A stretch of DNA of 4,392 bases. It comes from a virus. Its lineage: Duplodnaviria; Heunggongvirae; Uroviricota; Caudoviricetes. Below the pieces are notes generated by a model. That model saw only the letters and a list, made by a program, of their open reading frames with translations, had not been told where the DNA came from and did not search any database. Location: IMG/VR virus record IMGVR_UViG_648276671_000011; one strand, 5' to 3'. Positions 150 through 4,392 of the stretch are shown piece after piece (positions within the stretch are counted from its first letter, which is position 1; every line of letters starts with the position of its first letter). A program made the position numbers and the translations under genes.

Positions 150-491
150 ATGGAGGCCATGACCATGACCATGACCATGACCATGACCATGACCATGACC
201 ATGACCATGACCGAGACCGAAGCGCTCGGGATAATCCGCAGTATTACCGGAATCAGCCAGCAGGCTGGCGAACAGGAGGCCACGCAGCCGGACAGCGTGA
301 TAGCCGAAAATTACGCGCGTGTTGTTGCTGAGGTGATGCGCCGTGATGGTATTGAGCTTAACGGCGTGGATATGCGCAACATACGAACCAGAGTCCTTGA
401 GTTGCTGGCATACCGTCGCCGTTCTCAACAACGGAGGGAGAGCGCGAAAAGTACTTACCAGTGGAAGAAGCCGGAACGACTGCGGCGGTAA
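150..491 (+). CDS. Hypothetical small protein (113 aa from ATG150; 138 aa if ATG75) with N-terminal (Met-Thr)9 repeat and a basic Arg/Lys-rich C-terminus
   Basis: ORF-track frame 75..491. AGGAGG at 131..136 lies 13 nt upstream of the in-frame ATG at 150. Downstream sequence (...ARVVAEVMRRDGIELNGVDMRNIRTRVLELLAYRRR...) is protein-like. Three other frames also read through the repeat (53..331 +, 35..283 -, 84..431 -), so strand and frame are not certain. I do not recognise the family. Confidence 0.45.
   Translation: MEAMTMTMTMTMTMTMTMTMTETEALGIIRSITGISQQAGEQEATQPDSVIAENYARVVAEVMRRDGIELNGVDMRNIRTRVLELLAYRRRSQQRRESAKSTYQWKKPERLRR
158..211. repeat. Perfect hexanucleotide microsatellite (CATGAC)x9, with one degenerate unit at 212..217
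   Basis: Directly counted: nine identical CATGAC units, 54 bp. Encodes (Met-Thr)n in the frame of the 150..491 ORF. Confidence 0.97.
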
Positions 492-675
492 CTTGCTGAT
501 ATTCCCGATAACGCAAAATTGCGTTGGCTGGTGGGTGAGTTGCAGATTTGCAACTCGACCATGAAACTACGGAAACTACCCGTAGTTTGGGTAGTAAGAG
601 TAACACCCAGATTTTGGGGCTTACTCGCGATACCCAAATAAAGGGTATCGGTGGAAGAAATATCGTTTCTCATAT

Positions 676-714
676 GTAAGTACCGAGGGCGGAATTCCGC
701 CTTCGGTTACTTAT
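676..714. repeat. Long imperfect inverted repeat (about 17 bp stem, one bulge) centred on the perfect 14-bp palindrome GGCGGAATTCCGCC (688..701)
   Basis: Hand base-pairing: 688..701 is its own reverse complement; flanks 676..687 pair with 702..714 with one bulged T and two G-T pairs. Confidence 0.6.
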
Positions 715-732
715 TGTGCTCATGCACAGGGA

Positions 733-793
733 GGGGCGGGTCAAAATCTCTGTACCCTGACGTCTTCAGGACTGCCCGCCCCATCGATTTTTT
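733..793 (+). terminator. Candidate intrinsic terminator: GC-rich stem GGGGCGGG (733..740) / CCCGCCCC (775..782) with a large loop, then T6 (788..793)
   Basis: 8-bp G/C stem enclosing a ~34-nt loop that has its own small hairpin (CCTGA..TCAGG); T-run starts 5 nt after the stem. The loop is larger than a classic terminator, so this is tentative. Confidence 0.3.
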
Positions 794-1048
794 ATACCCG
801 CGAAAAATGAAAAACGCTTCACGCTGGTGGGCCTGATGCCGATATGGGGAGCCGCATACCGGAGAATATCCACCAGCACGGCAACAGCAGAATAGCCCCG
901 ACACAGAAAAACCACGAATATGGGGTTTTTGTTATGGCATGGTCATGATGACCGCCCCTGCTCTGAATGGTGGAAATCACCACGCAGATCATCCACCAGC
1001 TTCATGACGGATAGCCGGAAAATGATAATGATTAAAGCGTGTTGATCT

Positions 1049-1075
1049 TTGTTCGCGGTTGTTCGATATTGTTCG
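1049..1075. repeat. Three copies of TTGTTCG at exact 10-bp spacing (1049, 1059, 1069)
   Basis: Direct reading: tTTGTTCGcgg TTGTTCGata TTGTTCGtga. One helical turn between copies, as in phased binding-site arrays. Confidence 0.6.
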
Positions 1076-1081
1076 TGAAGC

Positions 1082-1105
1082 GGTGTAGTTAATGGTGTAG
1101 TTAAT
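1082..1105. repeat. Perfect 12-bp tandem duplication GGTGTAGTTAAT x2
   Basis: 1082..1093 is identical to 1094..1105. Confidence 0.85.
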
Positions 1106-1278: not shown

Positions 1279-1599
1279 ATGGGTAAAACGAACGACTGGC
1301 TGGACTTTGATCAACTGGCGGAAGAAAAAGTTCGCGACGCGCTAAAACCGCCATCTATGTATAAAGTGATATTAGTCAATGATGATTACACTCCGATGGA
1401 GTTTGTTATTGACGTGTTACAAAAATTCTTTTCTTATGATGTAGAACGTGCAACGCAATTGATGCTCGCTGTTCACTACCAGGGGAAGGCCATTTGCGGA
1501 GTCTTTATCGCCGAGGTTGCAGAAACCAAAGTGGCGATGGTGAACAAGTACGCGAGGGAGAATGAGCATCCATTGCTGTGTACGCTAGAAAAAGCCTGA
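1279..1599 (+). CDS. clpS: ClpS, ATP-dependent Clp protease adaptor (N-degron recognition), 106 aa
   Basis: Translation [51 protein letters not shown]... matches enterobacterial ClpS as I remember it. 30-nt gap to clpA, typical of the clpS-clpA operon. Confidence 0.95.
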
Positions 1600-1629
1600 A
1601 TGCAGGCATAAAAATTGGGGGAGGTGCCT

Positions 1630-3906
1630 ATGCTCAATCAAGAACTGGAACTCAGTTTAAATATGGCTTTCGCCAGAGCGCGCGAGCACCGTCATGAGTT
1701 TATGACCGTCGAGCACTTGTTACTGGCGCTGCTCAGTAACCCATCTGCCCGGGAGGCGCTGGAAGCGTGTTCTGTGGATTTGGTTGCGCTCCGTCAGGAA
1801 CTGGAAGCCTTTATTGAACAAACCACACCCGTTCTGCCTGCCAGTGAAGAGGAGCGCGACACACAGCCGACGCTGAGTTTTCAGCGTGTACTGCAACGTG
1901 CGGTCTTCCATGTCCAGTCCTCCGGTCGCAATGAGGTTACCGGTGCAAACGTTCTGGTCGCTATTTTTAGCGAACAGGAGTCGCAGGCGGCATATCTGTT
2001 GCGTAAACATGAAGTCAGCCGTCTCGATGTGGTGAGCTTTATCTCTCATGGCACGCGTAAAGACGAGCCGACACAGTCTTCTGATCCTGGCAGCCAGCCA
2101 AACAGCGAAGAACAAGCTGGTGGGGAGGAACGTATGGAGAATTTCACGACGAACCTGAATCAGCTTGCGCGCGTGGGAGGAATCGACCCACTGATTGGTC
2201 GTGAGAAGGAGCTGGAGCGTGCTATTCAGGTTCTCTGCCGTCGCCGTAAAAACAACCCGCTGCTGGTGGGGGAATCTGGTGTCGGTAAAACCGCGATTGC
2301 GGAAGGTCTTGCCTGGCGAATTGTTCAGGGCGATGTGCCGGAAGTGATGGCTGACTGTACGATTTACTCTCTCGATATCGGTTCTCTGTTAGCGGGCACA
2401 AAATATCGCGGCGACTTTGAAAAACGTTTTAAAGCGTTGCTCAAGCAGCTGGAGCAGGATACTAACAGCATCCTGTTTATTGATGAGATCCACACCATTA
2501 TCGGTGCGGGTGCAGCCTCTGGTGGCCAGGTCGATGCGGCTAACCTGATCAAACCGCTGCTCTCCAGCGGTAAAATTCGCGTAATTGGTTCGACAACCTA
2601 TCAGGAGTTCAGCAACATTTTCGAGAAAGACCGTGCTCTGGCGCGTCGCTTCCAGAAAATTGATATTACTGAACCGTCGATCGAAGAAACTGTTCAAATC
2701 ATCAATGGCCTGAAACCGAAGTATGAAGCGCACCACGACGTGCGTTATACCGCAAAAGCGGTGCGTGCAGCGGTAGAGCTGGCGGTGAAATACATTAACG
2801 ATCGTCATCTGCCGGATAAAGCCATTGACGTTATCGACGAAGCGGGCGCTCGCGCACGCCTGATGCCGGTAAGCAAACGCAAGAAAACCGTTAATGTGGC
2901 GGATATTGAGTCCGTGGTGGCCCGTATTGCGCGCATTCCAGAGAAGAGTGTTTCGCAGAGTGACCGCGATACCCTGAAAAACCTCGGCGATCGCCTGAAA
3001 ATGCTGGTCTTCGGTCAGGATAAAGCCATTGAGGCGCTGACTGAAGCCATTAAGATGGCGCGTGCAGGTTTAGGTCACGAACATAAACCGGTCGGTTCGT
3101 TCCTGTTTGCAGGCCCTACCGGGGTCGGGAAAACAGAGGTGACGGTACAGCTTTCGAAAGCTTTGGGCATTGAGCTTCTGCGCTTTGATATGTCCGAGTA
3201 TATGGAACGCCATACCGTCAGCCGTCTGATTGGTGCGCCTCCGGGATACGTTGGTTTTGATCAGGGCGGTTTGCTGACTGATGCGGTCATCAAGCATCCA
3301 CATGCGGTGCTGCTGCTGGACGAAATCGAGAAAGCGCACCCGGACGTGTTCAATATTCTGTTGCAGGTGATGGACAACGGTACGCTGACCGATAACAACG
3401 GACGCAAAGCGGACTTCCGTAACGTGGTATTGGTGATGACCACCAACGCTGGGGTACGAGAAACTGAGCGTAAATCGATTGGTCTTATCCACCAGGACAA
3501 CAGTACCGATGCGATGGAAGAGATCAAGAAGATCTTTACGCCGGAGTTTCGTAACCGTCTCGACAACATTATCTGGTTCGATCATCTCTCCACCGACGTG
3601 ATCCATCAGGTAGTGGATAAATTCATCGTCGAGTTGCAGGTTCAGTTGGATCAGAAAGGTGTTTCTCTGGAAGTGAGCCAGGAAGCGCGTAACTGGCTGG
3701 CCGAGAAAGGTTACGACCGGGCAATGGGCGCACGTCCGATGGCGCGTGTCATCCAGGACAACCTGAAAAAACCGCTCGCCAACGAACTGTTGTTTGGTTC
3801 GCTGGTGGACGGCGGTCAGGTGACGGTTGCGCTGGATAAAGAGAAAAATGAGCTGACTTATGGATTCCAGAGTGCACAAAAGCACAAGGCGGAAGCAGCG
3901 CATTAA
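1630..3906 (+). CDS. clpA: ClpA, ATP-dependent Clp protease ATP-binding/unfoldase subunit (two AAA+ modules), 758 aa
   Basis: Translation from ATG1630 ([24 protein letters not shown]...) matches E. coli ClpA as recalled. Walker A motifs GESGVGKT and GPTGVGKT are present. GGAGG at 1619..1623 sits 6 nt upstream of ATG1630; the ORF-track start at 1615 is a TTG and is less likely. Confidence 0.97.
2122..2136 (+). promoter_or_regulatory. clpA: Internal ribosome-binding site GGGGAGG (2122..2128) plus in-frame ATG (2134..2136, Met169) for the shorter ClpA65 form
   Basis: SD-like GGGGAGG 5 nt upstream of internal Met169 codon (seen). Internal initiation at Met169 producing a truncated ClpA is established for E. 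coli ClpA. Confidence 0.6.
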
Positions 3907-3969: not shown

Positions 3970-4118
3970 TAGGCTGGGGCGGTGAAAACCCTATTTTTGG
4001 AGGTGAAGGTAAGTTGTTGATAATTAATGGTGCTGGAAGGTAAGAATAAAAAAGGGTGGCAGCAGGAAAATGAGATGGTTTTGCTTTATTAATAACGGAC
4101 TAAACGTGTAGTATTTGA
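3970..4118 (+). promoter_or_regulatory. AT-rich putative CRISPR leader
   Basis: ~150 bp AT-rich segment immediately 5' of the intact repeat; the degenerate repeat is at the far end, consistent with leader-to-array polarity on the + strand. No promoter hexamers confidently assigned. Confidence 0.4.
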
Positions 4119-4206
4119 GTTCACTGCCGTACAGGCAGCTTAGAAAGCCAACCGAAAGAAAAACTCGATTTTTATACCGTTCACTGCCGTACAGGCAGAT
4201 AAAATG
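4119..4206 (+). CRISPR. Orphan type I-F mini-array: repeat 1 (4119..4146, GTTCACTGCCGTACAGGCAGCTTAGAAA), 32-bp spacer (4147..4178, GCCAACCGAAAGAAAAACTCGATTTTTATACC), degenerate terminal repeat 2 (4179..4206)
   Basis: 28-bp repeat with the Cas6f-type hairpin core CTGCC-GTACA-GGCAG matches the E. coli/Yersinia I-F repeat consensus from memory. Second copy is identical for 20 nt then degenerates. Spacer length of 32 is typical. No cas genes in the window. Confidence 0.85.
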
Positions 4207-4249: not shown

Positions 4250-4267
4250 TGGCGGTGAGGGGGGATT
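4250..4267 (-). pseudogene. 3'-terminal fragment of a tRNA-Ser(GGA)-like gene (acceptor 3' strand plus part of the T-arm); the rest of the tRNA is not present downstream
   Basis: TGGCGGTGAGGGGGGATT is the reverse complement of ...AATCCCCCCTCACCGCCA, the 3' end of E. coli tRNA-Ser (serW/serX type) as recalled. From 4268 the sequence no longer follows the tRNA, and no complementary acceptor 5' strand (CCTCACC on +) is found in the next 125 nt. Confidence 0.5.
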
Positions 4268-4392
4268 GACTCGCTTCGCTCGCCCTGCGGGCAGCCCACT
4301 CACTGTGTTCGTGGTCTGTCCAACTGGCTGCGCCAGTTGTCGAACCCCGGTCGGGGCTTCTCGATCCCCCCTGGAGTGCAATATGCGAAAAA

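Follow-up and report, generated by a model that had tools for sequence, protein, structure and literature searches.

A 4,392-nucleotide stretch of DNA, held in IMG/VR as a virus of the class Caudoviricetes (IMGVR_UViG_648276671_000011; hereafter the window, whose numbering is used unless a locus is named), contains a run of closely packed hairpins between positions 537 and 793, just downstream of a small gene. What is such a run of hairpins for? The original prediction, made from the letters of the sequence, was of a structured 3' untranslated region (UTR) or a small RNA. Here, we argue that the hairpins probably belong to the non-coding right arm of a phage satellite, in which 3' trailer modules carrying a terminator are followed by a cohesive-end (cos) packaging site of the kind used by phages such as SfV.

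All of the stem-loops first listed could be read directly from the sequence (Table 1), and further stems were found at 509-526, 598-626 (H3), 656-670 and 715-728, together with a long imperfect inverted repeat at 577-609/615-647. When folded as RNA, the segment 530-800 reaches -125.6 kcal/mol, compared with -78 +/- 5 for dinucleotide shuffles (z = -9.4), and none of 200 shuffles folded as well. The reverse complement of this segment gives z = -9.35, and the palindrome block that we call M1 (see below) gives -6.8 on the plus and -8.2 on the minus strand when taken alone; the stem within the cos site is by itself unexceptional for its composition (z about -2). Because both strands fold equally well, the palindromes are a property of the duplex, and the density of hairpins does not point to one transcribed strand. 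In most copies several of the palindromes are perfect through their centres, as in GAGTTGCAGATCTGCAACTC and GGCGGAATTCCGCC. No gene is annotated across the hairpin stretch in any matching E. coli RefSeq record.

A phage satellite and its packaging site

The window comes from the E. coli chromosome, with clpS and clpA occupying 1279-3906 in the list of open reading frames (ORFs). Among 5,426 complete genomes of E. coli, 5,425 share some part of 1-1280, and the full interval is found in only 134. In NZ_CP026755 (locus L001), an insert of about 10.5 kb lies between cspD/yljB and clpS. Its genes encode, in order, a tyrosine integrase, an AlpA-type helix-turn-helix (HTH) protein, Icd-like proteins, a DUF927 primase, a single-stranded DNA-binding protein (as a pseudogene), homologues of a major capsid protein and of a head-decoration protein, a second HTH protein, a Nu1-like 'terminase small subunit' and a protein of family phrog_1561, and iterons (TAACCCGCAAAA) are found 3' of the primase gene. 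L001 thus possesses the features by which a phage-inducible chromosomal island (PICI) is recognised, namely an integrase, an AlpA-type regulator, a primase with an adjacent replication origin (ori), packaging-interference genes, a length of about 10 kb and repeats at its attachment (att) sites. The gene layout, the att repeats, a cos of lambda type that resembles the published 'CFT073 cos.1' and capsid and decoration genes like those of EcCICFT073 together make it certain that the window, from 1 to about 1105, is the right end of an EcCICFT073-like PICI. Since the island has the layout of a Gram-negative PICI, the hairpin stretch 537-793 lies inside a phage satellite, between its last gene and its right attachment site. 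Neither a large terminase subunit (TerL) nor a P27-type small subunit (TerS) was found in the window's island, which is of the classical PICI class. A PDB sequence search with the island's Nu1-like protein gave no match at E <= 0.01, and this protein is therefore not called an Rpp; by this search it has no detectable similarity to the crystallised RppC.

The island is bounded by a 24-nt repeat, GGTGTAGT(C/T)AATGGTGTAGTTAAT, the right copy of which occupies 1082-1105. This attR core comprises two copies of the 12-mer GGTGTAGTTAAT (Tandem Repeats Finder, period 12, two copies) and is repeated at attL. At 1049, 1059 and 1069, with an exact spacing of 10 bp, stand three copies of TTGTTCG, which are probably arm-type sites of the integrase. 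The interval 1036-1077 also matches, as its reverse complement, a primer with which Fillol-Salom et al. marked an island in strain IHE3034.

To look for relatives of the region, window 500-1000 was compared with 50,697 phage records by sensitive blastn. This revealed matches in 20 records, all confined to 729-812 (82-96% identity), and every one lies at a genome end or beside terminase genes or an annotated cos. The records of SfV and SfIV begin at window position 766 and that of SfI ends at 782; the SfII match covers bases 23-105 of its record, the ST64B match covers 40062-40144 of a 40,149-bp record, and the phiP27 match falls on a feature annotated as 'cos-site' (misc_feature, L002 1544-1553), the 10 nt of which, CGCCCGCCCC, align with window 773-782. 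The SfI cohesive end has been determined by end-sequencing of virion DNA to be the 10-nt 5'-TGCCCGCCCC-3' (PMC3636060), and the window carries the identical 10 nt at the corresponding place. When about 711-817 was aligned with phiP27, SfII and ST64B, long invariant blocks were seen (GGGGCGGGTC and GCCCGCCCC). What had been described as a GC stem plus T-run at 733-793, and counted as an RNA element, is the inverted repeat and T-run common to these phage cos sites. We conclude that about 711-817 is very probably a packaging site of the cos type shared by SfV, SfI, ST64B and phiP27, a family with HK97-like, HNH-dependent packaging.

The genes in phiP27 run in the order HNH endonuclease, cos, terS, terL, and SfII and ST64B have the same on either side of their sites. 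This context is absent from the island, where phrog_1561 and the palindromes lie upstream of the cos, and about 290 nt of non-coding DNA and attR lie downstream. A satellite that borrows its packaging machinery is expected to have a cos without HNH or terS neighbours, and carrying the cos of a helper is an established strategy, as illustrated by P4, SaPIbov5 and EcCICFT073. The site carries no annotated feature in any matching RefSeq record. Upon induction of a helper phage, the helper's terminase would cut satellite concatemers at this cos; in capsid-forming relatives, this task would fall to TerL and a P27-family TerS encoded by the satellite itself. Packaging of the DNA would follow the cut, and the palindrome cluster would make up the final ~240 bp of the molecule inside the capsid.

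Modules M0, M1 and M2 are found only in satellites

The region upstream of the cos is of a different kind. Window 500-728 was unmatched in the same 50,697 phage records (blastn), and bases 489-728 are shown to occur in satellites only, built from three modules, M0, M1 and M2. The palindrome region is always preceded by the phrog_1561 gene, the last of the satellite. Its product was assigned to this family at E = 1e-50 (PHROG), has no Pfam match and no PDB sequence match, and is 66-91% identical in other PICIs and in islands resembling capsid-forming PICIs (cf-PICIs); its AlphaFold model has three helices at a low-confidence pLDDT of 65. The equivalent RefSeq coding sequence (CDS) is L001 20171-20455. 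At 157-212 the hexanucleotide CCATGA (equivalently, ATGACC) is repeated perfectly in tandem, 9.3 times, which adds a run of (Met-Thr)n ahead of the start annotated for this gene; the RefSeq start lies after the repeat. Matches of other strains to this region are about 37 nt shorter and in two pieces, consistent with a differing number of repeats.

M1, which takes in four of the hairpins first listed, was identified in 704 of 5,426 E. coli genomes (13% of complete genomes), at 801 places (median one per genome, at most 6), and is never annotated. Over its 123 nt it is 90-100% identical in 666 of the 704 carriers. In all 43 distinct contexts a phrog_1561 gene of like orientation precedes it at a distance of 84-830 nt, and M1 invariably stands between this gene and a cos-like site. 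Downstream of M1 lies the SfV-type cos in 14 contexts, 186 nt from a fixed anchor, and another conserved site in 14 contexts, at 159 nt; this second, L008-type site, a putative cos, has no phage match. The same region is found at the right end of a classical PICI (L007) and of cf-PICI-like islands (L005, L006 and L008) that encode a P27-family TerS and TerL, and in L221 and L270 M1 is duplicated in tandem together with a cos-like site. Some constraint on M1 is likely: in L008 its DNA is 94% identical, compared with an amino-acid identity of 82% for the phrog_1561 protein. Its loops and spacers are conserved and not its stems alone, and the heptamer AAACTAC/GTAGTTT occurs four times within it and again in other modules.

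The M1 stems themselves show no sign of compensation. An alignment of relatives contained no compensatory double change in any M1 or M2 stem; the most diverged copy (L007, 78% identical) has uncompensated mismatches in H1, H3 and H4, and L166 has one in H4. M1 can also be folded as one long imperfect hairpin (577-647). The overlap between H2 and its alternative hairpin arises from the tandem duplication of a 9-nt unit, GAAACTACN (GAAACTACG-GAAACTACC), and L005 and L007 each lack one copy, with the loss of one of the two alternative hairpins.

The first of the M1 palindromes, H1, has a second setting. The 20-mer GAGTTGCAGAT(C/T)TGCAACTCG lies within KilA-N-domain genes beside rusA in lambdoid prophages, at no fewer than 88 IMG/VR loci (for example L212 4770-4789, L230 5503-5522, L411 and L412), where it encodes ELQICNS. 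The domain was confirmed by Pfam (E = 6e-27), and a second KilA-N gene with the 20-mer shares 60% protein identity with the first. Both H1 arms are preserved in homologues from a Yersinia and a Morganella phage, and with them TTG and TCG, two codons little used in E. coli; other homologues have a different peptide at this position (six phage homologues were compared). The sample of KilA-N genes was partly ascertained by the H1 pattern itself, and the IMG/VR codon sample consists of 80 near-identical genes and is uninformative. Nucleotide-level selection for the palindrome and a shared recombination linker are both possible explanations, and we treat the double occurrence of H1 as a lead, not a finding. 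M1 does not appear to be a decayed KilA-N gene, because the tblastn match does not extend beyond the 7-10 residues for which the palindrome codes. A sigma-54 promoter overlapping H1 (TGG-N9-TTGCA) was also discarded, since its spacing is lost in L005 and L008, as judged by eye. A scan of genome contigs with the invariant 16-mer GTAGTTTGGGTAGTAA gave only chance matches in unrelated phyla, the pattern being too short for 596 Gb.

M0 combines a conserved box with a hairpin. The box recurs 72 times in satellite right ends, 71 times in plus orientation, and a single element can hold as many as four. Its variable positions coincide with the Ns of the consensus for integration host factor (IHF), which is matched by 489-501, with an A/T-rich flank, here regarded as a candidate IHF site. 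This consensus, WATCARNNNNTTR, is matched 3 times in the window against 0.29 expected; in 53 satellite right-end regions the minus strand has 57 matches and the plus strand 18, where chance would give each strand about 2. The other exact matches in the window lie at 38-50, upstream of the phrog_1561 gene, and at 4010-4022, downstream of clpA. In 27 units of the M0 hairpin, six of six pairs show two-sided changes (35 such cells, where 15 were expected), a covariation score that none of 500 shuffles reached, and at least 8 different stem sequences occupy the same position with pairing retained. This shows selection for self-complementarity, not for RNA: because the units compared are paralogous, no RNA was inferred from it. 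A test of strand asymmetry proved uninformative about selection at the RNA level: of 37 units, 14 have the better fold as plus strand and another 14 as minus strand, and the G-U counts left by single transitions in the stems are 20 for the plus strand and 16 for the minus strand.

M2, the palindrome next to the cos, has a predicted fold of -26.7 kcal/mol on the plus and -21.5 kcal/mol on the minus strand (z about -6). It is retained in satellites of the window type, and those of the L008 type have other hairpins instead.

Several right ends carry further sequences in this interval. In L156 (2345-2400) and L151 (2285-2340), which lack M0 and M1, five GTGAC repeats with 10-11 bp phasing directly follow the phrog_1561 stop; they have the appearance of a protein-binding array, possibly the recognition site of a small terminase. 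The interval from the phrog_1561 gene to the cos holds ori iterons (TGCGGGTTA/TAACCCGC), which surround an AT-rich core, in L144 (3060-3250), L151 (2540-2700) and L221, in the last of these between the two M1 copies, so that the right-end region collects cis-acting sites. L007 (2787-5200) abuts lambda-like prophage sequence with annotated truncated capsid, FI and head-tail joining genes, and has an abortive-infection gene immediately after the palindrome region. Downstream of M2, L219, L242, L283, L306 and L308 are prophage-like, L219 and its relatives with a coding stretch that looks terminase-like by eye. Satellites of the L007 and L219 types seem to be inserted within prophages.

Table 1 Positions of the features discussed, in the window unless locus L001 is named
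Feature	Position	Strand	Sequence or remark
phrog_1561 gene, last of the satellite	207-491	+	94 aa; possible earlier starts at 75 or 150 (ORF list)
M0 box	489-507	-	TAACTTGCTGATATTCCCG; pattern TAACnnGyTGATwnTyyCG; TAA is the stop codon of the phrog_1561 gene
IHF consensus match	489-501	-	TATCAGCAAGTTA; consensus WATCARNNNNTTR
M0 hairpin	509-526	.	AACGCAA/TTGCGTT; fold -7 kcal/mol
M1, satellite-specific nested palindromes, 123 nt	532-654	.	H1 537-556, H2 564-588 (alternative 576-594), H3 598-626, H4 629-649
H1, 20-bp palindrome	537-556	.	GAGTTGCAGATTTGCAACTC; most copies perfect, GAGTTGCAGATCTGCAACTC, central GATC
Stem of H1	537-544/549-556		GAGTTGCA/TGCAACTC
Stem of H2	564-572/580-588		AAACTACGG/CCGTAGTTT
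Alternative stem	576-581/589-594		CTACCC/GGGTAG
Stem of H4	629-635/643-649		GATACCC/GGGTATC
M2, 39-nt GC-rich palindrome (inverted repeat)	676-714	+	centre GGCGGAATTCCGCC, A/T-rich arms; terminator scan match
Predicted cos site, SfV/SfI/SfII/SfIV/ST64B/phiP27 type	~711-817	+	alignment with phage cos regions
Inverted repeat (stem) of the cos site	733-740/775-782	.	GGGGCGGG/CCCGCCCC, then T788-793; encloses small hairpin CCTGA/TCAGG (756-770); conserved in phage cos sites
Cohesive end	773-782	+	TGCCCGCCCC; exact identity to the SfI end
Right attachment site	1049-1105	+	direct repeat L001 10512-10568 / 21012-21068
Island CDS range	L001 10592-20455		RefSeq annotation

Trailer, protein-binding array or RNA

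How, then, should the palindromes be read? We favour the view that the whole is the non-coding right arm of a PICI, made up of an SfV-type cos and 3' trailer modules with a terminator, and hold this to be the probable explanation. Within it, M2 could well be, although we are not confident that it is, an intrinsic terminator of the island's rightward operon, possibly acting in both directions. The match in the terminator scan, the stable fold of M2, the constant orientation of M0 and M1 relative to the operon and the lack of a promoter inside the segment count for this reading. M2, backed by the cos stem and its T-run, would end rightward transcription. In an integrated island this would shield clpS, and in circular or concatemeric DNA it would shield int, which lies across attP. 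The smaller palindromes would act as stem-loops of the 3' trailer and the IHF box as an architectural site.

A number of observations weigh against this picture. The tail of M2, UUAUUGU, is a weak U-tract that is partly paired within the stem, and in L007 the M2 stem has no U-tract at all. Both M1 and M2 are missing from many satellites that have this cos, so that cos function does not depend on either module and neither can be the universal terminator; same-cos satellites can have phased GTGAC repeats, ori iterons or other hairpins in their place. The palindromes that are perfect through the centre (GAGTTGCAGATCTGCAACTC, GGCGGAATTCCGCC), with no strand bias, fit DNA-level sites as well as they fit RNA hairpins, and M1, being at least as conserved as the adjacent protein gene, exceeds what a passive trailer would need, which hints at a sequence-specific role. 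Termination at M2 and cleavage at the cos of this island are both inferred from sequence, and the candidate IHF site is assigned from its match to the consensus.

The alternative that survives best, although we consider it unlikely, is that the palindromes and the IHF box form a nucleoprotein site at the DNA level, either accessory to packaging at cosN or serving as a sensor or decoy for a DNA-binding protein of the helper, for instance a KilA-N protein, in whose gene H1 is found. Such a protein-binding array would account for several palindromes that are perfect through the centre, for the lack of strand asymmetry, for the conservation of loops and spacers besides stems, for the strong enrichment and orientation of the IHF consensus, for the recurrence of AAACTAC/GTAGTTT and the duplication of M1 with cos in L221 and L270, and for the exact H1 20-mer in KilA-N genes, where distant homologues preserve its arms although this takes rare codons. 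However, in lambda and HK97 the binding site of the small terminase is on the other side of cosN, and a packaging role for M1 is therefore weakened. In addition, many satellites with the same cos are without M1, and in the M0 hairpin the pairing persists although the stem sequence changes, as would be expected of structure rather than sequence recognition. The phrog_1561 protein was tried as a binding partner and set aside, since its variants do not track module type, its predicted fold is of low confidence and it has no PDB match. A possible precedent, Roi of HK022 (a protein whose binding site would lie within its own gene, with an IHF site alongside), was dropped as evidence: its N-terminal domain differs, and H1 is absent from bases 30000-40751 of the HK022 record at up to 4 mismatches.

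Less likely still is a regulatory RNA, in which M1, with or without M2, would be a small RNA (independent or derived from the 3' UTR) or hairpins 564-588 and 576-594 would form a switch. The good conservation of M1, its place directly 3' of a gene in constant orientation, a very stable fold, an M2 that could supply a terminator 3' end and invariant stretches able to stay single-stranded, such as GTAGTTTGGGTAGTAA, which could act as a seed, all speak for an RNA. Against this, cmscan of the whole window at E <= 1 returned nothing from Rfam between 213 and 940, and a scan for sigma-70-like promoters across 236-1115 on both strands found none, which makes an independent small-RNA gene unlikely. 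The minus strand folds equally well, and the compensatory changes suggested as a check on the listed stems are absent, with three stems broken in L007 without compensation. The proposed riboregulatory switch fails because its alternative hairpins are not conserved, being lost with the 9-nt copy in two relatives, and because the segment is 3' of phrog_1561, not in the 5' leader of a regulated gene, and cos and attR both separate it from clpS, which follows next with its start at 1279, leaving nothing for a cis switch to control. The segment is thus not a riboswitch, an attenuator or a known small RNA. What endures of the original prediction is more limited: the segment is non-coding and directly 3' of a real small gene, and 676-714 is a credible terminator, so that a structured 3' trailer may be the correct description of part of it. 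The small ORFs at 519-641, 548-679 and 455-673 minus were rejected as genes, as they lack a Shine-Dalgarno sequence and are not conserved (an ATG is lost by a 1-nt deletion in L166, a frame is truncated after 13 codons in L007 and the frame continues into other sequence in L008).

The weakest reading, a functionless mosaic of recombination scars, linkers and decayed fragments hitch-hiking between the last gene and cos, of which the palindromes would be a by-product, would suit modules that are shuffled, duplicated or replaced, with ori iterons or small ORFs inserted between repeated boxes, an H1 placed at the edge of a mosaic segment in the island and in KilA-N genes alike, and stem mutations that go uncompensated, but it is very improbable given an M1 so nearly identical among its carriers, more conserved than the adjacent gene and invariant in orientation and position, an M0 hairpin that covaries and a hairpin density 9 standard deviations above chance.

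Known systems, remaining features and helper range

The trailer-and-cos arrangement can be set beside several known systems. With the cos sites of SfV, SfI, SfII, SfIV, ST64B and phiP27 it shares the 83-nt block 729-812, the cohesive end, the inverted repeat, the T-run and a downstream ATACCCGCGAAAAATGAAA, but here these stand in a 10.5-kb satellite, with no HNH gene before and no terS after. The island resembles EcCICFT073 (Fillol-Salom 2018, 2019) in gene layout, in its capsid and head-decoration homologues (c1499 and c1500 in EcCICFT073; PMC6092414) and in a lambda-type cosQ-cosN near 'CFT073 cos.1', but the two published cos sites of EcCICFT073 are both lambda-type, whereas the right-end site here is of the SfV/phiP27 type. 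Like SaPIbov5, a cos-type Staphylococcus aureus pathogenicity island that carries its helper's cos and relies on HNH, TerS and TerL (PMC6092414; cf-PICI preprint), this is a satellite with a helper's cos, but the host phylum is another, the sequence is unrelated and the island has a second, lambda-type cos. The cf-PICIs (Alqurainy et al.), islands with P27-family TerS, TerL and phrog_1561, end in the same M0-M1(-M2)-cos, while the window's island, of classical type, is without TerL or a P27-type TerS. Thus, satellites with a helper's cos and EcCICFT073-type PICIs were known already, and the 3' element appears from its sequence to be a further member of the SfV/phiP27-type cos sites.

As in the chromosomal BIME/RIP elements (bacterial interspersed mosaic elements and repetitive IHF-binding palindromic elements), in which repetitive extragenic palindromic (REP) sequences flank an IHF site, an IHF consensus here stands beside short palindromes where a transcription unit ends, and M2 resembles the GC-rich stem of an intrinsic terminator. 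Nevertheless, there is no REP consensus, the copies are confined to satellites at the low number per genome given above, and the U-tract after M2 is weak. REP, BIME and enterobacterial repetitive intergenic consensus (ERIC) elements are recognised by many scattered copies, and every context examined here was a satellite right end. The concern that the stems might be copies of a dispersed intergenic repeat is thus borne out in one respect, as they do belong to a repeated module family, but this family is borne by satellites and not dispersed in the chromosome.

At the far end of the window, between clpA and the tRNA-Ser/infA region, lie two CRISPR-DR4 repeats (4119-4146, 50 bits; 4179-4206, 30 bits), presumably marking the place of the type I-F CRISPR array remnant of E. 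coli. An Rfam RtT match at 4250-4385 on the minus strand (44.9 bits, just below the gathering score) overlaps the RefSeq position of tRNA-Ser and is probably a tRNA-related false match; this tRNA is cut by the window end, and ARAGORN found no complete tRNA.

The second cos of the island lies about 1.3 kb left of the window start. It is a lambda-type cosQ-cosN at L001 19195-19260, with an exact GGGCGGCGACCT, directly upstream of the Nu1-like gene, and resembles the published 'CFT073 cos.1' (PMC6092414 supplement). By these likenesses, one island carries candidate cos sites of two phage packaging families. The mobilisation of EcCICFT073-type PICIs is known through lambda-type cos sites and Rpp, and in the searchable literature we found no description of a lambda-type and an HNH-type cos together in one classical PICI. 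Many E. coli genomes, a large share of the total, also have the SfV-type cos in their prophages.

A literature search yielded no paper containing the M1, H1 or M2 sequences, and the accessible EcCICFT073 and cf-PICI literature does not mention the M0, M1 and M2 modules. M1 and the repeated unit of IHF box and hairpin are thus conserved, unannotated and absent from the searchable literature, in the case of M1 in 13% of complete E. coli genomes. There is a modest chance, no greater than that of the protein-binding array, that M0-M1 is an undescribed cis-acting or RNA element in the interplay of enterobacterial phage satellites with their helpers. In one version it would be an IHF-assisted site that binds or titrates a KilA-N-type helper protein, the 20-bp palindrome being present in identical form in the gene for that protein; in the other, it would give rise to a 3'-UTR-derived RNA acting on the helper or the host. 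As part of the same joint and rather doubtful reading, the PICI of the window would be a dual-cos satellite exploiting both lambda-type and HNH-dependent, SfV-type helpers.

What resembled the stem and T-run of a terminator or small RNA is in all likelihood a packaging site, recognisable from its 10-nt cohesive end. The presence of a second cos family, of the SfV/ST64B/phiP27 type, in an EcCICFT073-type PICI suggests a broader range of helpers for gene transfer by these satellites.

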